Translations under genes and position numbers: made by a program
The notes under the pieces: generated by a model
The model's database searches: none
The model's input: only the letters and a program-made list of their open reading frames with translations
What the model was told of the DNA's origin: nothing
Shown here: positions 53,506-64,000 of the stretch, piece by piece
Position numbering within the stretch: position 1 is the first letter of the stretch
Layout of the letters: every line of letters begins with the position of its first letter
DNA from: Barthelona sp. PCE
Lineage: Eukaryota
Length of the DNA: 64,000 nucleotides
Direction of reading: 5' to 3'
NCBI GenBank assembly: GCA_040285745.1
Contig: JAUFOR010000008.1
Location: 1,054,001-1,118,000 of the forward strand

Positions 53506-54759
53506 TTACGAAGGAAGTACTAGTAGACTGGGGTCACATTTGTACAAATAATATGTGTTGGCAAACGTGTCTTCGATGTGATGACAATGATTCCGCATTA
53601 TTCTGCGGTTCAGAAAATCAAGCTCGTTGCTGGATAGGACGGTGTTTATATCAACACTTAACTTTTCGATGTAGTCAACAAAAATCTCAAAAACACCAAG
53701 ATTTTCTTCTACAATACTGTAATAGTTCCTGAAAACTTCCAATGCTTTCTTTATGATCCCCTTGTGTACATGATATTCAGCTCTGGAAAGAAGGAAACCA
53801 AAGAGCTTGTGCTGATTCTCGGTGATCATCATTGCCTCTTCCAGAACAAAATTGGAAATCACCCACAAAAAAAGCATTTCCTCAATTATAGGAAGTGGAC
53901 CGTTGACATTTGCATCCATAACTGCAAACAATAAGCGCCACAGACGAGAGGGAGCTGCGAAAGAAGCAAAGTTCCCAATAACTGATAGCATCGGATTTAA
54001 ACAAATTTCATCGACGTGATCCAGACAATATGGTAAAATATCGTCCTCTGCCCACCGTACAAACTGGTCTTCAACATCACCTTGTCCCACAGAATCAAGC
54101 AAAAATGAAACTGCTCTCAAAGTATTTGTATTTTGATCTACTGGAACTATATTACAATAAGACATTAAAAATTTGCCAATATCAACCCAACAAGCCCTGC
54201 AGTACCCACTAACGTGAATTTTTTTCAGAAATCCAAATATGATGCTCTCAACAATACCTGCATCTAAACTATCAAAAATATCCTCTTGTCTGCTAATATA
54301 ATTTATGAAACGTTTAAGCGTCTCCTCGTAACAAACCGAGTGCAACTTTTTGATTGAAATAATGTTGGTAAACAACCATACAAGTTGAATGAAAAGAAAC
54401 TCTGTTTCACAGTCTAAAGAACATGCGTTCTCTACCCACCGCACAACAGTCCCGTTCAACATCATCTCGGTAGTCTGAGAATCAAAAAGACTAGGAGATA
54501 ATTGAGAGATGCGTTTTAGAATAAGAACAATATCAGAATAAGTACTACTATCAACAATATCCAGCCATTCCACAAGCTTATGCAAGACACGGACGTCCTC
54601 CAATCTGTAGTCTTCCCTGCCAGTTTGCTGTTTTAACAAAACAATACATGAATTGATATGTTTGTGAGACAGCTCTTTGTTTTCTGCAAATAATATTAGT
54701 CTTAAAATGTCCCTTGCCTGCTCACAACAGCCGTTTCTGTCGTCATCAACAGTTGGCAT
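53506..54759 (-). CDS. ARM-repeat-like protein
   Basis: Repeated W..(T/S)N helices (VWLFTNI, LWVISNF, VIGNFAS) as in importin-alpha-like ARM repeats. Confidence 0.55.
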   Translation of the reverse strand: MPTVDDDRNGCCEQARDILRLILFAENKELSHKHINSCIVLLKQQTGREDYRLEDVRVLHKLVEWLDIVDSSTYSDIVLILKRISQLSPSLFDSQTTEMMLNGTVVRWVENACSLDCETEFLFIQLVWLFTNIISIKKLHSVCYEETLKRFINYISRQEDIFDSLDAGIVESIIFGFLKKIHVSGYCRACWVDIGKFLMSYCNIVPVDQNTNTLRAVSFLLDSVGQGDVEDQFVRWAEDDILPYCLDHVDEICLNPMLSVIGNFASFAAPSRLWRLLFAVMDANVNGPLPIIEEMLFLWVISNFVLEEAMMITENQHKLFGFLLSRAEYHVHKGIIKKALEVFRNYYSIVEENLGVFEIFVDYIEKLSVDINTVLSSNELDFLNRRIMRNHCHHIEDTFANTYYLYKCDPSLLVLPS

Positions 54760-55065
54760 TGATTTGAAAGAGGTGAAAAAAACTCACTATCAAATACTAA
54801 ATGAATTTAAGTCTATTTCCAAAATTTAGCTTTTTCTCAGAATATTATTGACCATACTGACGTGAAAAATACCTAGATCGAATAATATGAGATTATTTGT
54901 TTTTCAAGCTTTCTTTGACGAAAGGTACAGCATTCGAACAAAGAAACAGCGTTCTGACCACAAAATATTATGTATAGAGCTGCATCACAAAAAATAGCTG
55001 TGACAGAATAATCATGCTAAGTATTTTTCCACCTCTATCAAGAGTTTTACTACTTTAAAAGTTTC

Positions 55066-56256
55066 ATGGAGCACCAATTCATACAATACGTTCGAATATA
55101 CACCTACAAACCTCACACACAAGCATTAAGAATTATTGAAACTATAAATGGTTTCAAAGAAGATAAAACTATGCTTCCAATCGGCTATGCATACTCCTGT
55201 ACTCTACACACAGATGAGAAGCACACAATTGAAGTTGATGGCAACACAATGAATCTTGTAGATATCATTCAAACACCATTTGTTGACAACAACACTGGAC
55301 TTGTAGTTGCAGCCGAAATTGCAGGGCAGAACGTTGATCATTTTTTGTTTGAAACCGGCAAAGACCATCTCCACTTTGTGCGTATGGTTAACAACGTTCC
55401 TTTGCTTGTTTATGAGGCTCACCCAAATCAGAAGTGTGTTGTTTTCATGGATCAGCTTTTCCGTCACCCAGAACAGGAACTCACCGTATATCGCATTAAT
55501 CGTGGCGACAAGGCTGTTTTCAACGCACAAAACATTACACAACTAGGATTCAACACAAAGAGACACGAGATCCGTGAACGCAAAAATGTTGATGATATCC
55601 TGAAAGAAGTTTCAGTTCAAGTAACTGTCGCAATCGACTTCACGGCGTCGAATGGCAAACCTTCCAATCCAACATCCCTCCACCACGGTAATAACAATGA
55701 ATACACAAAGGTAATAGAGTCCCTGAATGTTTTTAACGACTACGACGCTGATGGAATGATTGACGCTTTTGGTTTTGGAGCCATCATCCCTCCACAGCGC
55801 CAGGTACAGCACGTGTTTAGACTGAGTCAAAACGGTTGTCATGGTGTTGAAGGCGTGCTGAACAGGTACAGGGAAATCAAAAACACAATCAGGTTTAGTG
55901 GGCCCACTCTTTTATGCCCTCTGCTGACCGCATATGGCTCTCTGGTCGATCCCTCCGAGTATAACATCCTTGTAATTGTTCTAGACGGTCAGATCAACGA
56001 TATAGATGACTGTTTCAAGGTGATAAATGAACGCCTCTGCATGCTGCCAATTTCTATTGTTTTGGTAGGTGTAGGAAACGCTGATTTCGGTTTGTTAGAG
56101 CAACTTGATGGCGACGGTGAGCTTTCCTTCGCCAGGAGAGATATTGTACAGTTTGTGCAGTTCTCTCGCTTTGCTAACCTAGATTACAGCCTCACAAACG
56201 AGCTCTTTGAAGAAATCCCGATGCAGGTTGAAGAGTGGTATGCATCACGTAGATAA
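55066..56256 (+). CDS. Copine family protein (vWA domain)
   Basis: VAIDFTASNG.P..PTSLH, YDADG.I.AFGFGA, FSGPT, LDGQIND, LPISIVLVGVG, RDIVQFV, EIPMQV. Confidence 0.93.
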   Translation: MEHQFIQYVRIYTYKPHTQALRIIETINGFKEDKTMLPIGYAYSCTLHTDEKHTIEVDGNTMNLVDIIQTPFVDNNTGLVVAAEIAGQNVDHFLFETGKDHLHFVRMVNNVPLLVYEAHPNQKCVVFMDQLFRHPEQELTVYRINRGDKAVFNAQNITQLGFNTKRHEIRERKNVDDILKEVSVQVTVAIDFTASNGKPSNPTSLHHGNNNEYTKVIESLNVFNDYDADGMIDAFGFGAIIPPQRQVQHVFRLSQNGCHGVEGVLNRYREIKNTIRFSGPTLLCPLLTAYGSLVDPSEYNILVIVLDGQINDIDDCFKVINERLCMLPISIVLVGVGNADFGLLEQLDGDGELSFARRDIVQFVQFSRFANLDYSLTNELFEEIPMQVEEWYASRR

Positions 56257-56715
56257 AACACGTGTTTGAACCCATTTTGATGTAAATATTATTTTTTTTA
56301 ACAACCGGCACAAATCACCATTAATGACTTCACAGGGGCTGAGTTCTCTCGGATACATGCATGTTTACTGACAGATATCTAGTTGGATGGCGTGAATAAG
56401 TTCCTAAGCTCGAGGTCGGGTAATTGAGTTCCCACCCCATAAAAAATAGTAAAAAAGAGAAATCCGGAATGTACGATAAAGGACGTAATTCGGACAGCAC
56501 ATTCATGAGTCACAGATTCACTCTGCCATGAGTTCCGTCAACCACATGCTTCCATCATTCAACAAACATCATTCAACAATATCCAAGAATATAAAAAGTG
56601 ATCTTTTTTTTATTAATCCTTTTTCTTCCCCTTTTCAGCAATGCGCACATGGATAATCGATTAAATGATGACGCAAAGTGGTTAATTGGCAAAAAAAATA
56701 TTTGACAACAAAAAG

Positions 56716-56788
56716 TACTCAGAGGGAGACTCGAACTCCCGACCGTTCGCTTATTAGACGAATGCTCTACCGACTGAGCTATCCAAGC
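56716..56788 (-). tRNA. tRNA-Ile (anticodon AAT)
   Basis: GCTTGGA TA GCTC AGTCGGTA GAGC A TTCGT CT-AAT-AA GCGAA CGGTC GGGAG TTCGAGT CTCCC TCTGAGT A folds as a 73-nt cloverleaf with A/B boxes; T5 Pol III terminator at 56710-56714. Confidence 0.95.
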
Positions 56789-56920
56789 AATGTTCCATTA
56801 TTCAATGAAGACGGAAATGTTCCAATGAATATATCAAGTTCCATGCTGGTTATTCACAATTTCCGACAACCATTTTCTCGTCCATCTCACGTAATTAGAG
56901 GTTAAGTATACTGAAAACAG

Positions 56921-57033
56921 TTATCCTCTATCCTACACCTTGGATGGTTTACTGAAGTGACAGCCTGCATGTTGGGAGGGCAGACAGAACGAACCGTTAG
57001 ACAGGACGGGTACGGATCAATCAAGATACCGCC
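56921..57033 (-). repeat. Split direct repeat B2 (113 bp, 3' terminus)
   Basis: Identical to 57443-57555. Confidence 0.97.
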
Positions 57034-57303
57034 GCACGCTACGTACCCGTAGAGCCATGATTAGTGGCTAACTGTCTCGCTATTGAGAAAATATGACGAA
57101 ATTTTATGTAAAATTTCTTGATAAAACTTACCTGCGTTCTTTCTGCACTAGGATATAATTTATGCAGAAGATGATGAAAGACTTTCTTGGATAATCCAGC
57201 ACAGAATGTGTGCGGAGTAGTTTTTTCCAAGCTCACGGAAAAACAACAAAAAGTTTCGAAGATTATGTTGAAATTTAACTTTCTGGTTTTTTGTCTTTTT
57301 TAA

Positions 57304-57444
57304 TTTTTTGAATTCAGGAAAGAAATCGAAAAGCAGTTACTCGAGTCCGAGTAACTTAGCTAGGATTATTCTTTAACTCTCACTATCAGTGTATGTCATC
57401 TAGGTTTCGGGTGCATCAAGATTCCGATTGCCATCAACTACATT
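57304..57444 (-). repeat. Split direct repeat A2 (141 bp)
   Basis: Identical to 63335-63475; contains 9-bp hairpin agttactcg-agtc-cgagtaact (57335-57356). Confidence 0.97.
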
Positions 57445-57555
57445 ATCCTCTATCCTACACCTTGGATGGTTTACTGAAGTGACAGCCTGCATGTTGGGAG
57501 GGCAGACAGAACGAACCGTTAGACAGGACGGGTACGGATCAATCAAGATACCGCC
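57443..57555 (-). repeat. Split direct repeat B1 (113 bp)
   Basis: Identical to 56921-57033; shares TT (57443-57444) with A2. Confidence 0.97.
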
Positions 57556-58762
57556 CATTCTCGTATCTGGTTTATACTGTACAGTTCCCCCGGCATGGCG
57601 TACTCCAGGTCGTGAATATCCAGGTAATACTTATTCATGGTTTCATTGGCGCTCCAGCCCCCAATCTGTCTGGCTGTGTCTTTGTCACCATGAATTTTGA
57701 TAATATCTTGGCATCTCCCCGCTCTTATGGCGTGGGGGTTGAATCTCGCTCCAGGCGGTGCACCTATGAGGTTTGGATCGTCAAAGACGGTGTTAAACCT
57801 TTTAGAATTTTTGCTTCCCGGTCTTTTGCTCCTCTACTGAGGAGTAACGCGGTGCCCTGCCGCTTTGTTTCGAGTACATGCACAGTAAACGGCGCAAATA
57901 CACTTTCGTACCAATATTTTTTGGGGAGTTGCTACAAAACGTCCTTTTCGGCTTTTCCCATGCGTTTTATGCTTTGGGATTATCACTGAGAGGGATTGCT
58001 CCATGCTGTTTTCATGAAGAGTGATCTCAAGGTGTCGTTTTTCTATAAAATTCAATTCTCCCGATCTACAACCGAGAATGTAGTGGATCGACAGTATTTG
58101 GCAGTCCAGGATGCATTGTTCCACCTCCTGTGAGACCATAGCACTTATTTGGTCTCGTGGAGAAATTTTTTGTCCTTTTGGGGCTCTACGATAGTCTCGT
58201 GGGCTCTCTCTTGGACGAGGAACAGCAGCTTCTGGACCACAGACGCTCTTATAGCGCATTTATAACTGTGTGATTTGGGGATTGCTCCGCTTTCGTCGGT
58301 TATGATCTTTGTACGAGCTGAAATGAGGTACTGCCTGTCTGTATCTCAGGCGTCCTCCCAGCAGCCGGTTGTAAGCAGTCTAATAACTCTTAAAGAGTTT
58401 CTTAGAAGGGATCCTTATGCATCAAGAGTGCTACTCTTGTAATGCAGGATTTGGGCTGTGTTGCCTTCGGGCGATTCGCCCTTTTCGGCTCTCTCCACTA
58501 GGTCAGCTATGCGTAAACCTACTAACAGTTTGCAGTGGCTTGGATTTTTTATCCAGCCATACATCCTCCTTATTGCATTCTGATTAGCTTCAATGTACTG
58601 TCTAAATCGCTTGATGGCGGTCCTGGCTGTGCTTAAGGAACCTTTTCTTAAGAACAGCGCCAGGAGTTCGTCTACTCTCATTATTTCGGCTGGAAACCTG
58701 AAATGTTTCCTCACTATGAAGGGGACATCTATCCTTACGAAGTCAGTGTCGCCCTTCCACAA
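57543..58762 (-). pseudogene. Tyrosine recombinase, frame-disrupted in this sequence
   Basis: SAM-like LRKGSLSTARTAIKRF; ILGCRSGEL (R), PKHKT (K). The C-terminal piece 57543-57833, not in the ORF track, reads FNPHAIRAG (HxxR), IGGWS (W), MNKYY (Y) and ends at a TGA inside B1. Confidence 0.9.
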
Positions 58763-59181
58763 GCTTCCTGCTTGTACAGCCTTTGATTTGACAGGGAAAA
58801 ATTTTTTCCGGGTTGATGGTAATTTCGCACATTTCTTTCCATGGACGAACGAACTGCGATACCATACCCCACACGGGTGTGGATGGGAGAGGTTGTGGTA
58901 ACTTCTCTGATAGTAACACCGGTCCTAAGGGCCGCTAGTAAAATAATTTCTAACGCCGCTGCTGCTGACTGGGCAGGGACCATCTGTTCGACTGTGTGGC
59001 TCTCTCTTCCGATCATATCTATCTCAAACTTCGGTTTAGAGCGGGGGACTGTGTATATTATATCTTCCAGTCCCTCAAACACTGGTGTTGTATCAATTTT
59101 GTCTTCTCTCAGTTTTAAGAAGGGTGCCATTAACTTGGGCAGTCCCTGTCGTCTCGATACGGGCATAAACACTAAGTAGTT

Positions 59182-61260
59182 TTAGAGTGTTTTTCGAAAC
59201 AAGTTCATTACCCGGATGCAGCCAACTGAGCGGCCGCTCTTGTCCTGTTTTGCTCTCGCTATGAGGGGGCTGGTATGGCCCGGCTCATAAGCGCTTGGGA
59301 CGACAGAATTTAGAATTATAATCTCCTTTGGGGGAACGAGCTCTTGAAGGAAGGTTCCCCTCGATTGTTTCCAGCAGACTGGCTCTCCACGCGAGGCCAT
59401 GTCCGAAAGGTGATTAAGTACAGAGGGAACGTAAATCGCTTCCACAACAAGGTCCTTCTCTCGGCAGAATATTCTTGCCAAGGTCCGGGCAGCATCATTG
59501 GGGACAGTATTGCACGACGTTAGTTTGTACGTCGCAGCTACCACATAAGTGTTATCGCAATACTAAAACGAGATATCCGTTGGATAGCTTGGACCCGAGG
59601 CTGTGCAGCATAGCCATCAGGGGTTCCGTCTCTGCATAAGCGATCGACAGTTTTGTTTTCTGGATCGCTTTCGCTTTATCTTTTGCTGATAGCATATTCA
59701 GCCTATCGATGAGTTCATTCTTGGCAAGATCAATGCCGCCTCCACTGCGAAGTAGCAGGTGTTCGAAACAGGTTTCGTCAACATCATCCGTTGCGAAAGC
59801 TGTGCCTGCGATACTTATTTTCTCTTCACTTACAGCAGCGTCACTTATTAAAAACCCGCTTTTTCCTGGTGGAAAGAAGGGGTTGTGGTGGAAAATCGTG
59901 ATCGGCTAAACTCGCAAGGGTACACGCGAGGTGGTGTGCCTCGTTTGTACCAATGAATCCAAGTGGAGACCCGCTGGTAGGGTCTGTTGCCTTTGGCTGG
60001 GCCTCGATCTGGCCGTATTCATGATGCTGGACCTCCTTCAGGTCTTGATCGCCGATCGTGAGCGATCTCGTCATGAGCCACTTGGTTATTTTTCCAGGAA
60101 TGCCATCTTTATCCTTTCTTCTTTTCTTTAGTGCTTCGTGTATGATGGCATTGATCGTAATGGCGGAGACATGTAGCTTTCTGCTAGCAGCTCTAAACGC
60201 CGTGCACTTCGATGCAAGTTCTACGAAGTCTTTTTTTCCTTGCATGAAGCTTGTGGGCCAGTTCTTGAGCCCTTAGCGCGATCTTACGGCAATTAGCATC
60301 ACTTGGTGCTAATGCCACTTTCATATTTGGATCGTCCGGCGGTCCAAAGGTAGATGTGATGGTGAAACCTATCACATCTAATTTCTTACATGGTTCGACA
60401 GATTTTTTCTTGTTGATAGTGATATCCAACCAGAAACAGATTAGCTTGAGCAGACGCATGGCGTCGCTGGCACTACGGTATCTGCCTCTTCGATCTGGGG
60501 ATTGCCATCCGAAAACATCGTCTATGTAGGCCCATAGTTGGTAACCTAGAGCACGCATAGGCGCTAGGGCTAGGTTCATCAACACTGAGAATATAGCGGG
60601 GCCAAACGTGACTCCGAAGCACAACTTTGTGCACCGGTAAAAGCCACCGTTGAGGGAAAATGTAAAGAACTTTTGAAAGTCTTCCGCAATGGGGATGAGA
60701 TGGAAGCCGTTGGATGCATCGATGGAGAACAAATCATCGTTCGGGTTTACCAGGTTAAATAACCGCACCTTGGGCAGTTCCATTGGGAACATGTTAAACA
60801 TGTCGTTAATCGGGGTGCAATCAGTAATAATTCTTATATCACTTACTGAGACATCTTCGAAGTACTCCTCAATGTCTTCTCGGCTGGCCCAGTCTTGGCT
60901 GAGGGCGACAATGGCCGATTGTTCGATGCCTTTGGGCACCACACCGATTTTAATAAAAGCTGTTTTTACGCCAACAGGAGGTTTCGACATTTCCCAAGCT
61001 GGGTCATGATCCAGCTTAACAAAGGCGTCGCTTTTTTCTATCTTTTCCTGTACTAGGAGGGAGATGCGCGATCCATCCTCAAACCAGTTTTCTTATGGAC
61101 CGTTAAACGGTCTTTTACGGATTTGAGAAACGTTTTTTGATTACTCATGACGTGATGGGCGCTTATTCCGTGCGTCAACATCGATTGGAGGTTGGTGGAA
61201 TGGTCGTCACTTAAACCTGCGATTTTTTCATAGTATCGATGCGTTGACGGGTTTGACGAG
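59182..61260 (-). pseudogene. Reverse transcriptase-RNase H, frame-disrupted in this sequence
   Basis: RT: VVPK, RIITD, SIDASNGFHLI, LCFG...GPAIF, AYIDD, INKKKS, VIGF. RNase H across frames: ISDAA, IAYAE, YCDN, YVPSVLNHLSDMASR (DIRS-type). The 5' boundary is approximate. Confidence 0.9.
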
Positions 61261-61499
61261 GCGCATGTGGGCTCGTCTGTAACGTATACTCCATGAATTT
61301 CTCTGCCTTGTCTAGATATATTCCTAGCTCTCGTATTTTTAGGCCGGGGATAGCGTCCACAAGAGACGCTGGCGGAGATGGCTCAGCCCAACCAGTTAGG
61401 TCAGGGGCCTGTATACTTACTATCTCACTCGCTCCACGCTGGGGTTCATCCATGCTGGCTGAGAATGGCCTGGCATTTTTCTGCACCGCAACGTTAAGG

Positions 61500-63286
61500 C
61501 GGTTTTGAACCACTCAGCACTCAGGGTAGGTCCTACTGGGCCTACAACTGGGGATATGTGAGGTTGTGTTGGTGTTGGTGTTGGTGGCAACTCCTCAACA
61601 GGTTCTGGTGCGATAATGTGGGATTATAGGGATGCGACAAGCGCTATATCCATGTATAAGTCCCTATCGCGGGAGGCAGCCGCTAGATCTGCCTTAAGTT
61701 TGGGGATAATGACGCTTTTTTTTCGTGCTTCAGCTTTACGCTTTCTGCGCCTTTGATCCTCCAATAAACCTCGAATTTCGAGAAAAAGGTGTCGTTATGC
61801 GGGCCAACTAGCGCCTCACGGTGCTGTGGCGGCATAACAGATGCGGACAGTTTCTCAACTGGGATTTACAAGTGAGAGATTCGTCATCTCACTTTCTCCT
61901 GCCTACACTCTCCTGGATTGCTTGCGCTTAGGGACATCAGGAGGGGGCGGGAGGTCGACGAATAGCGTCGAGGTGCTGGTAGGGGGTTGCACAGGGGAGT
62001 TTATGACCCTCGTACAATCTGCCATAGATGTGGCGTCGGTTACCGAGATTTTTTCTCAAGGCCCTCATGAAACTAGACTTTTCATGGGTGACGCCACGGC
62101 CGATGATGGTGAGTAGGATGATCTTCATCAGGTACTCAGCCACTGCCTATGGCTACCGTCAGCTCCAGGACGCGGTGGGTTAGGACCACTGGGACTACCG
62201 TTTTTAGACGACTAGCGTGATACTGTCTTCTCTTTCAAGAATTTGAGGAGTTGCTGGGGAAGCTGACGCTCTCGTTCAAGGCTCTTTGCCGAGAGGAGCT
62301 GTCAGGGATGACCCCCATCCTGTCTAAAACGTCCGGGATTCCCGGGGAGGACTTACAGCCGAGGTAGCTGCTGGTCCTGGTAGTGTCAAAAGTGGTTATT
62401 ACGGATTTCTCACAGTTTTTTCAACGTGGTTTTCTACGGATTTCTCACAGTTTTTTTCAACGTGGTTTTTTAAGGATTTCTCACAGTTCTCAAGTGTGGT
62501 TCTTAAGGGTTTCTCGCAGTTCTTCCATTACTGGAGGAGCCTTCGGGCTTGGACTGCTATCAGCGAGGTAAGGAAATCATTCATCCTTACCCTGGCCTCT
62601 GGGTCTGTGCCCCCTTGTGGTGTGACCAAAGTGGGGCCTCAGGCTCCTCAGGCGCCTCATCGACATATCGGGAGACGCCGCGAGATTTCACCTTGAACGT
62701 TGGGACAATCTCATCACGTACTTCCGCGACGTTACTCGCGGGCTTGAGGACTGCCTTAAAGGCTGCCTCGTCAAAGTCACTGGCCGCCTGGGGCTTCCTA
62801 CGTGTACTTTGTGCTAGATGTCTGACGCGATCTAGCTGAGGAATCGCAAGCTCAAAGAGCATATCCCAAGCTTTTTGTGCGATTCCTGCACGCGACCTGG
62901 TAAGGTCGGCTGTTGCCTTTCTTATTATCCCAGCGGTGGCCTCCGCTGTGGGCATGCCCATAAAGAGGAGGAGTAACGCGTACTGCTCCCCTTTGCCGCC
63001 CTCGCTGCTGCCTCTGTCCCAAACCCGCTGGGGCTGGGCTCATTGTGGTTTAGCAGCGGTATTTCATCTACAGTGTGCACCCAGGATGCCAATAGGACAG
63101 GTAGTACTATGCCGCTCAAGTGAAACGATTTCTTGAGCTTCCCGAGGTCTGGGGTGTCCCTGAGGCTGTACATAGTCTCAAAGGTGGCGACTACCATGTC
63201 CCTGGCCCTCAACAAGGGCTCCTTACAGTATGTTTTTAAATTTCAAAACTTAGATATTCTATTCCCTCATTTACATAACCCGACAT
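61500..63286 (-). pseudogene. gag-like ORF1, frame-disrupted; boundaries approximate
   Basis: ATG at 63286 just inside A1; successive coding-like fragments (62925-63215, 62587-62961, 61937-62143) at the position expected for gag; the first two are joined by a single-base shift. Confidence 0.55.
62386..62523 (-). repeat. Tandem repeat of about 33-36 bp, 4 copies, in ORF1
   Basis: Plus-strand core ggatttctcacagtt...caacgtggtt recurring; minus strand encodes NCEK(P/S)-containing units. Confidence 0.9.
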
Positions 63287-63334
63287 TGAACAAAGGATTT
63301 AAATCTCAATGTATATCAATCTTTGACGGGTTTT

Positions 63335-63475
63335 TTTTTTGAATTCAGGAAAGAAATCGAAAAGCAGTTACTCGAGTCCGAGTAACTTAGCTAGGATTAT
63401 TCTTTAACTCTCACTATCAGTGTATGTCATCTAGGTTTCGGGTGCATCAAGATTCCGATTGCCATCAACTACATT
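63335..63475 (-). repeat. Split direct repeat A1 (141 bp, 5' terminus)
   Basis: Identical to 57304-57444. Confidence 0.97.
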
Positions 63476-64000
63476 GTATAATCAAACGGTAGAGACCCAA
63501 AATCGATTAAAAATTGTTAATTAACTTTTTTTTTTCAATAAATTTTACAACCCTTAAATTAACTTATACAGCTTAATCATATACACACACACAGCTAATG
63601 TGTTATATATAACTCAAAAGCACTGCTTGAAAATAAATGCTACTGAATATTGCATACCGGCCATCCCTCTGCCGTTTTAGCCGACGAGGTGTGCCGTTGA
63701 TCACATTGACCATCCAAAGAGTCTTACATCATGCTCTTTAATGGTGAGAAATCGGAGTACACATTAACAAGACAGATAAAGCGTTAATTAGAAGAAAAAA
63801 AGTTTTTTTTTTTAAAAATAAAGTGTTTATTGTGCTAGAATAATATAAATACTAAATAAAACTTCCCCTGCGCAGTTTGTAACTATTTAAAAAATAGAAT
63901 AGAAGCTTTACTTTTCTTATTTCGTTAAACCATTACAATATATCATCATCACTACCGCTGCCATCTACATTTGTACTCCATTAACTAGCTCTCCAATTAC

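Follow-up and report, generated by a model that had tools for sequence, protein, structure and literature searches.

A probable split-direct-repeat retrotransposon of the DIRS order in the metamonad Barthelona sp. PCE

Retrotransposons carrying a tyrosine recombinase (YR) are rare and patchily distributed, and a single versus several origins of these elements is debated (PMC4157794, PMC6681497). According to the sections of the published descriptions that define the groups, DIRS1-like elements combine inverted repeats with a Dam-like methyltransferase, PAT-like elements combine split direct repeats with a methyltransferase, and Ngaro and VIPER elements have split direct repeats and no methyltransferase (PMC4157794, PMC6681497, PMC3783388). 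The split layout, written A1-[ORFs]-B1A2-B2 (ORF, open reading frame), is given for Ngaro, PAT and VIPER elements in the respective accounts (PMC4157794, PMC6681497, PMC8547959). Here we describe a locus of Barthelona sp. PCE in which the same layout was found. It occupies positions 56921-63475 on the minus strand of a stretch of 64,000 nt (GenBank assembly GCA_040285745.1, contig JAUFOR010000008.1, positions 1,054,001 to 1,118,000), and this whole stretch is called the window in the following. In our assessment the region is in all probability one insertion of a DIRS-order retrotransposon with split direct repeats of the Ngaro/PAT type, which represents a very divergent lineage specific to Barthelona.

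The genome paper describes the host as a deep-branching metamonad, with a genome of 10.2 Mb that is said to be smaller than any other known from a free-living eukaryote (PMC11316075). Nanopore R9.5 reads formed the basis of the assembly, and Illumina reads were used for polishing (PMC11316075). A first-pass annotation of the window, made from the sequence alone, had supposed a compact, metamonad-like genome, and this is what the 10.2-Mb genome of the metamonad Barthelona sp. PCE represents. Retrotransposons and reverse transcriptase (RT) are unmentioned in the main text of the genome paper, and transposon terms are absent from three supplementary texts belonging to it (PMC11316075).

Repeat layout, junctions and insertion site

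The repeats were located by a repeat search of positions 55500-64000 and by comparing the element with the entire window by blastn. Read along the minus strand, the order is A1, coding region, B1, A2, a unique spacer and B2 (Table 1). The arrangement proposed in the first-pass annotation, A1-ORFs-B1A2-spacer-B2 with identical repeat pairs, was recovered at exactly the same coordinates, with 141 and 113 nt at 100% identity. That exact repeats of 141 and 113 nt arose by chance within 8.5 kb is impossible. No inverted terminal repeats involving the element ends were detected in the repeat search of positions 55500-64000. In the spacer an open frame of 86 codons (minus strand, 57039-57299) fills most of the 270 nt and has no Pfam match.

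The dinucleotide in which B1 and A2 overlap (57443-57444) is TT on the plus strand. The outermost 2 nt of A1 (63475-63474; AA on the minus and TT on the plus strand) represent the dinucleotide common to B1 and A2, and TT on the plus strand is present at the internal joint and at both outer ends. On the plus strand the left end reads host CTGAAAACAG-TT-ATCCTC, the internal joint CAACTACA-TT-ATCCTC and the right end CAACTACA-TT-host GTATAATC. The internal B1A2 is thereby the exact sequence expected from the joined element ends. Apart from the TT, which also stands in the internal joint, the flanks CTGAAAACAG and GTATAATC have no sequence in common, and this one copy of the element therefore shows no target-site duplication. 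Both the junction strings and the missing target-site duplication agree with what had been quoted before.

The same annotation had called the TT a crossover core. The shared dinucleotide would be compatible with strand exchange within a 2-nt core; as a single coincidence, seen in one copy, it is not significant, and the term was an overstatement. If the true ends are blunt, an overlap of at least 2 nt is expected by chance with p of about 0.16-0.22 (own calculation, each base being assumed to match with a probability of 0.25-0.3). A single assembled copy, moreover, underlies the arrangement as well as the predicted circle, empty site and crossover dinucleotide. Around the B/A joint no inverted repeats were found that might serve as recombinase-binding arms.

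For elements of this type a model of transposition has been published, part of which is summarised in PMC6681497. Following the general model, an RNA reaching from within A1 to within B2 would be reverse-transcribed. The minus-strand cDNA, once at the A sequence of the RNA's 5' end, would jump to the internal A2 and copy into B1, which would create a B-A joint, and this joint would close the cDNA into a circle. The YR would then exchange strands between the B/A joint of the circle and the chromosomal target, and the resulting insertion would lack a target-site duplication. The repeat layout, the identity of B1A2 with the joined ends, the missing target-site duplication and the predicted set of enzymes can be seen directly in the window; the steps of the route are inferred from the published model.

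Because the model requires it, A1 and A2 as well as B1 and B2 must have been identical at the time of insertion. Between the two members of each pair 0 differences were counted in a total of 254 nt, corresponding to a 95% upper bound on divergence of about 1.2% (own calculation). The insertion is therefore young, and judged from the repeats it is a recent event.

The element lies 664 nt downstream of a copine gene. No ORF of at least 40 codons runs across the predicted empty site, and the insertion can for this reason be regarded as intergenic. Both sides of the element are unique host sequence, and in the 64 kb of the window blastn found neither a second copy of the element nor a solo repeat.

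Table 1. Coordinates of the repeats and predicted coding features of the element (positions in the window)
Feature	Positions	Strand	Remarks
A1, 5' terminal repeat	63335..63475	-	141 nt, 100% identical to A2
B1, internal repeat	57443..57555	-	113 nt; includes the 3' end of the polyprotein frame with its stop codon
A2, internal repeat	57304..57444	-	141 nt; 2-nt overlap with B1 (57443-57444)
Spacer, unique	57034..57303	-	270 nt between A2 and B2
B2, 3' terminal repeat	56921..57033	-	113 nt, 100% identical to B1
Polyprotein coding region	57543..63286	-	ATG 63286-63284 to TGA 57545-57543, inside B1
Gag-like N-terminal region	61141..63286	-	about 700 amino acids
Tandem repeat in Gag-like region	62381..62520		four copies of a 33-36-nt unit, 64-100% identical to the reference copy
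RT ORF piece	60193-61092	-	299 amino acids, YIDD; RVT_1 core at about 60741-60358
RNase H	59383..59865	-	SDA...AE...CDN...D..SRG (D-E-D-D); split by a frameshift and a TAG near 59568
Domain X	58690..59382	-	about 230 amino acids, conserved in all three Barthelona families
Tyrosine-recombinase-like domain	57546..58680	-	helical N-terminal part and catalytic part with R, K, HxxR, W, Y

Polyprotein domains and the putative recombinase

The RT piece was scored against 1.84 billion representative proteins. A total of 2,883 matches had E <=0.001, and only three of them reached E <=1e-30: P0002 (1127 amino acids, 95% identity), P0003 (712 amino acids, 94%) and P0004 (1923 amino acids, 42%). These three and their cluster mates P0152-P0159 are all designated 'hypothetical protein [Barthelona sp. 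PCE]'. Three families can be distinguished. F1 is the family of the window copy and includes the intact relatives P0153 (1836 amino acids) and P0002, F2 includes P0156 (1876 amino acids) and P0004 and can be aligned end to end with P0153 of F1, and F3 is represented by P0020 (1518 amino acids), likewise from Barthelona sp. PCE and encoded on the 2.17-Mb contig that also bears P0002, with an RT which is about 29% identical. In all three families one polyprotein of 1,500-1,900 amino acids comprises a Gag-like region, RT, RNase H, a domain of about 230 amino acids which we call X, and the YR-like domain. The RT motif is YIDD or YVDD, and the RNase H pattern is SDA/TDA ... AE ... DN ... D..SRG.

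RVT_1 was recognised by Pfam in one of the 13 ORF pieces on the minus strand (E 2e-12; 47.7 bits, cut-off 29.6) and in the relatives P0153 (4.5e-9), P0156 (2e-14) and P0020 (1.9e-13). RVT_1 exceeds its cut-off both in the ORF of the window and in each of the three families, and the RT belongs to the type found in long terminal repeat (LTR) retroelements. When a profile of the polyprotein was compared with the PDB, the best match was 8r0s_A, an 'Enzymatic polyprotein' of the caulimovirus type (E 6e-15), followed by the RTs of foamy virus, Ty3 and HIV.

No RNase H family of Pfam was found in the polyproteins at E <=0.1. The D-E-D-D residues are conserved across the three Barthelona families, and a local hidden Markov model matched the RNase H part of other RT proteins with values of 4e-10 to 2e-8, including P0101 and P0095, in which RT and YR occur together. 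Weak matches (domain E 0.016 and 1.3e-4) were obtained with P0112 and P0150, both of which carry Pfam RT_RNaseH over the same stretch. The YIDD motif, the RNase H residues and the R-K-HxxR-W-Y set that had been read from the window are thus all present, the RT with the RVT_1 match given above and the others conserved in three families. Pfam searches of the polyproteins of the three families detected no rve integrase, protease or Dam family at E <=0.1, and the D[TS]G motif of aspartic proteases occurs in 0 of 4 polyproteins.

In the Gag-like region neither a Pfam family nor a zinc knuckle or protease motif was detected. Its middle part (about 62600-61790), which includes the tandem repeat, is unlike the F1 copies of the P0153 type in the window copy, and the Gag-like region therefore differs between F1 sub-lineages.

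The C-terminal domain is very probably a tyrosine recombinase, an assignment based on motifs and weak profile matches, with no curated threshold reached. Residues R205, K238, H316, R319, W342 and Y352 (P0152 numbering) are invariant across the three families, which in this part are 20-23% identical. The distances between these YR-like catalytic residues are 33, 78, 3, 23 and 10, close to the spacing of the Cre active site with 28, 88, 3, 23 and 9. For a comparison of profiles, the YR parts of three animal proteins with RVT_1 and Phage_integrase were chosen, namely P0095 from Allacma, P0101 from Antedon and P0017 from Trichogramma. The hhalign alignment of the profile of the three Barthelona families with them extends over 141 columns at E 0.0019 and brings R, K, HxxR and W into register. 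As controls, the reversed profile gave E 0.75 and the best of 30 column shuffles gave 0.035, which means that the real alignment surpassed 31 of 31. Neighbours of the YR-like domain in the ESM Atlas had scores of 0.97-0.98 and included several clusters with Phage_integrase; the ten best Pfam-bearing matches all share the family or clan of the top one. Foldseek ranked Cre and XerH first, with E 0.33 and a poor model, and returned nothing at E <=0.001. The last ORF piece of the window, taken by itself, had a sub-threshold match to Phage_integrase (Pfam, E 0.024), and a word-based search with the YR-like domain recovered only another Barthelona fragment.

Several results weigh against our reading of the locus. 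The recombinase family PF00589 matched the read-through of the window copy with E 0.013 (15.7 bits, cut-off 27.1) and P0153 with 0.071, and Pfam finds no recombinase in P0156 or P0020. In PHROGs and NCBIfam no recombinase was obtained at E <=0.1 for any of the four proteins, and searches of the PDB by phmmer and with a profile returned none either. Both AlphaFold models, calculated from alignments of two and five rows, are poor, with a mean predicted local distance difference test (pLDDT) of 43.9 and 38.2, respectively. Finally, the coding region of the window copy is not one ORF but consists of about 12 pieces in shifting frames with stops, and as assembled it is untranslatable.

PF00589 is reported to detect the YRs that DIRS and Ngaro elements of fungi encode (PMC3783388), as well as those of the Cafeteria Ngaros (PMC8547959). 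The same model finds the fungal and Cafeteria enzymes but not those of Barthelona above the cut-off, and the YRs of Barthelona therefore seem to be unusually derived.

Domain X, which sits at the position where PAT and DIRS1 elements carry a methyltransferase, matched no known family and had no usable match in the ESM Atlas. Two candidate identities were without support. A profile comparison with the Dam regions of three matches gave E 0.54, which is no support for a Dam domain. The 'PPF...PxW..W' module was likewise without support, with E 0.55 against an alignment of 22 sequences and 0.66 for the reversed control. A look-alike motif noticed in X, LP.PLPS.P.W, was discarded after the reversed control had scored the same.

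The module itself, '[NFH]PP[FW] ... (18-50 aa) ... PxW..W', follows RNase H in 22 DIRS/PAT-like proteins, for example P0010, P0101 and P0112. Only two of these 22 proteins reach the Pfam threshold for Dam; as a marker of that domain, the motif may surpass the Pfam model in sensitivity.

State of the reading frame and alternative readings

The first-pass annotation had called the element complete. With respect to the repeats this holds true; the polyprotein frame, as assembled, is broken about 14 times. Frame changes were mapped by ungapped tblastn of the intact relative P0153 on the window and each switch was inspected, which resulted in about 14-15 frame changes between the two copies. Two of them are situated in the YR-like domain, which was read with X at stops. 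An alternative genetic code (table 6, TAA/TAG = Gln) was tried and dismissed, as it gives no long ORF and leaves the pieces unjoined. Either the window copy is defective and was moved by the proteins of intact copies, or part of the breaks are uncorrected homopolymer errors, or both; both probably occur.

We lean towards a copy that is truly defective and belongs to an F1 sub-lineage in which the frame had already been lost; since then the sub-lineage would have multiplied with the help of proteins from intact elements or through segmental duplication. P0003 (PCE1_000257) and P0166 (PCE1_000926), gene models at two other loci on another contig (2,128,580 bp), are 98-100% identical to the out-of-frame readings of the window. 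They stop or shift where the window does, including the 'LVLVLR' stop near 59567 and the frame change near 58906, which is a 2-nt loss at a non-repetitive site ('IREVTTTSPIHTRVG'). The defects common to P0003, P0166 and the window therefore speak for inheritance in a sub-lineage of at least three copies. In addition, TAA at 59184-59182 replaces a Lys and TAG near 59568 replaces a Trp of the intact copies, and since the repeats are 100% identical, the frame breaks must predate the insertion or be unreal. On the other side, five of the roughly 14 frame changes fall in A runs of 6-7 nt, of which there are only 14, making up 1.5% of the coding region, and at least four others occur where 3-5 identical bases follow one another. 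The sites of frame change include A runs near 61228, 61138, 60237, 58171 and 57922 and T/C runs near 59850, 59567 and 58797. At 58171 the run has six A in the window and five in P0166, whereas seven are needed, which looks like miscalling and not like inheritance. The assembly, moreover, derives from Nanopore R9.5 reads, for which polishing with short reads is poor in repeats (PMC11316075, as far as the assembly is described there). The disagreement of near-identical copies on the length of this A run also suggests that repeats in the assembly are under-polished.

An intact copy in the cell, with all frame breaks being assembly errors in repeated sequence, we consider unlikely. Such an explanation is in line with the strong enrichment of frame changes at homopolymers, with the conflicting length of one A run in near-identical copies, with the long open frames of the surrounding host genes and with the 100% repeat identity of a young insertion. 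However, a 2-nt loss outside homopolymers and two nonsense substitutions are atypical of consensus errors of Nanopore reads, and annotated relatives show the loss or begin and end at the stops: P0166 has the 2-nt loss and starts just after the TAA, and P0003 ends at 'LVLVLR'.

Two further alternatives concern the nature of the element as a whole. A C-terminal domain other than a tyrosine recombinase would make the locus another retroelement, such as a rearranged LTR element or one with an integration enzyme of a kind not yet known; this we consider very improbable. This explanation could draw on the lack of a curated profile at threshold, of a solved structure found by sequence and of a good model, as well as on the best RT match in the PDB being of the caulimovirus type and the best database matches outside Barthelona being of the Gypsy type. 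It is opposed by the R-K-HxxR-W-Y set, invariant in three families and with Cre-like spacing, and by the colinear profile alignment that beats all 31 controls. The exact split-direct-repeat layout without rve, without terminal direct repeats of the LTR type and without target-site duplication also speaks against it. An artefact in which repeat copies were collapsed or joined into a chimera during assembly, conceivable for a repeated element in a long-read assembly, is hardly credible, for the arrangement A1...B1A2...B2 is canonical for the class, the internal joint matches both ends base for base, and a chimera would not be expected to yield this layout between unique host flanks. A DIRS-order element with a YR thus remains our preferred reading.

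The G+C content is 0.47-0.49 at 58001-62000, within the element, and 0.39 in the adjoining host DNA (54001-56000), and 2-kb bins across the window range from 0.36 to 0.49. Host genes at positions 1-56256 of the window are tightly packed long ORFs in the standard code, with 30 ORFs of at least 250 amino acids outside the element. No Pfam family was found at E 1e-5 for 11 of the 20 host ORFs scanned.

Phylogenetic position and comparison with known systems

Outside Barthelona the best match to the RT is 28% identical (E 7.8e-17), and the three top proteins are followed by three Gypsy-type 'K02A2.6-like' proteins of a pseudoscorpion. The 147 non-top RT matches were labelled by their Pfam partners: seven carry rve and/or the integrase zinc domain (Gypsy type), three carry Dam and three Phage_integrase. 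Two of the 147 are themselves from Barthelona, namely P0020 and, judged by 72% identity, P0088. The RT trees are quick maximum-likelihood trees with long branches and no root, and their rows are without named references for Ngaro, PAT, DIRS1 and VIPER.

In the tree of 129 rows F1 and F2 form a pair with a Shimodaira-Hasegawa-like approximate likelihood ratio (SH-aLRT) support of 98, and F3 joins weakly (83, together with another long branch). The Barthelona families are placed outside a clade of 114 rows (87) which holds every row with a Dam, motif or YR label, and they sit, loosely grouped, among long branches that are unlabelled or of the Gypsy type. A tree of 50 rows puts the three families on one side of a branch (64), outside the DIRS/PAT-like clade of 39 rows (94) and outside the Gypsy-type clade (100). 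One of the unlabelled RT neighbours is P0071, all relatives of which are metagenome proteins. These trees support an RT that would not be nested within a described family, as regards the DIRS/PAT-like and Gypsy-type groups as labelled here. The very divergent proteins, on which a new lineage had been proposed from the window, are hence also visible in the database matches and in the quick trees.

Neither the type of element nor the mechanism presumed for it is novel. New are the host phylum, the depth of the divergence, the single polyprotein with an additional conserved domain and the occurrence of three families in a genome of 10 Mb. In our literature searches we came across no account of a YR retrotransposon from Barthelona or from another metamonad. 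On a reading that we consider less likely than not, it would be the first one in Metamonada, with one polyprotein of about 1,500-1,900 amino acids, a lineage-specific domain between RNase H and a highly derived recombinase, and transposition still going on in a genome smaller than any other known from a free-living eukaryote. A deep-branching protist lineage that has the split-repeat layout and whose RT and YR are far from sampled relatives would provide a distant data point for the debate on the origin of these elements. Counted by locus tags, seven annotated loci belong to F1, five to F2 and one to F3, and the 10.2-Mb genome accordingly still carries at least 14 loci (13 gene models and the window copy) of three retroelement families, with at least one very young insertion.

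In the annotation these elements appear only as hypothetical proteins, and they probably mark under-polished places of the assembly. One such gene model is P0159 (2533 amino acids, PCE1_004918), in which a complete F2 polyprotein is fused to an ABC-transporter-like protein. Either an F2 copy is located directly upstream of an ABC-transporter-like gene or the annotation read through; the case illustrates that these elements create chimeric gene models.

The comparison with other retroelements can be made on the level of structure and domain content. An LTR retrotransposon of the Gypsy, BEL or Copia type was rejected, as no terminal direct repeats of the LTR type, no rve, no protease and no target-site duplication of 4-6 bp were found. 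With DIRS1-like elements such as DIRS-1 of Dictyostelium, the element shares RT, RNase H, a YR in all probability and the lack of a target-site duplication. DIRS1-like elements also have inverted repeats at their ends, a complementary region in their interior and a methyltransferase, none of which was found in the Barthelona element.

In VIPER the YR ORF precedes RT/RNase H. In the Barthelona element, by contrast, the YR-like domain follows RT/RNase H in all three families, and a single frame in a metamonad host contrasts with the separate ORFs and the kinetoplastid host of VIPER. Common to the element and to VIPER/TATE of kinetoplastids, in the features reported for the latter, are a protist host, the order A1 ... 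B1 A2 B2, repeat pairs with up to 100% identity and very divergent proteins (PMC6681497).

PAT-like elements (Pat1, Toc, Kangaroo) resemble the element in the order A1-B1-A2-B2 and in the succession of RT/RNase H, a further domain and a YR, a probable one in Barthelona, going by the structures reported in PMC4157794. They differ in the Dam-like methyltransferase (PF05869) that is given for PAT elements (PMC4157794) and was not detected in the Barthelona element at E <=0.1. The RTs of Barthelona lie outside the clade of all rows with Dam or motif labels, as seen in quick, unrooted trees.

The closest agreement is with the Ngaro elements, as they have been described for Cafeteria burkhardae (PMC8547959). 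Both are about 6-7 kb in size, have the order Gag-like region, RT/RNase H and YR (in Barthelona a probable YR), and are described without protease, DDE integrase, detectable methyltransferase or target-site duplication (PMC8547959). The internal repeats lie downstream of the YR-like domain, a feature by which Ngaro elements are recognised. The Cafeteria Ngaros, according to the same account, possess three ORFs, in which Pfam identifies both RNase H and YR (PF17919 and PF00589; PMC8547959). The Barthelona element instead encodes one polyprotein of about 1,850-1,920 amino acids with RNase H and the YR-like domain below the Pfam threshold, carries domain X between the two and has 270 nt of spacer between A2 and B2. 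The Ngaro/PAT-type architecture of the DIRS order that had been assigned to the locus at the outset is therefore retained, with the layout as given in the descriptions cited (PMC4157794, PMC6681497, PMC8547959) and with no DDE integrase found in the polyproteins. Because it has split direct repeats, no Dam domain was found in it and X is without support for Dam homology, the element is by its structure, and as set against the descriptions of the named groups only, Ngaro-like, with domain X as an additional domain and with a single ORF.

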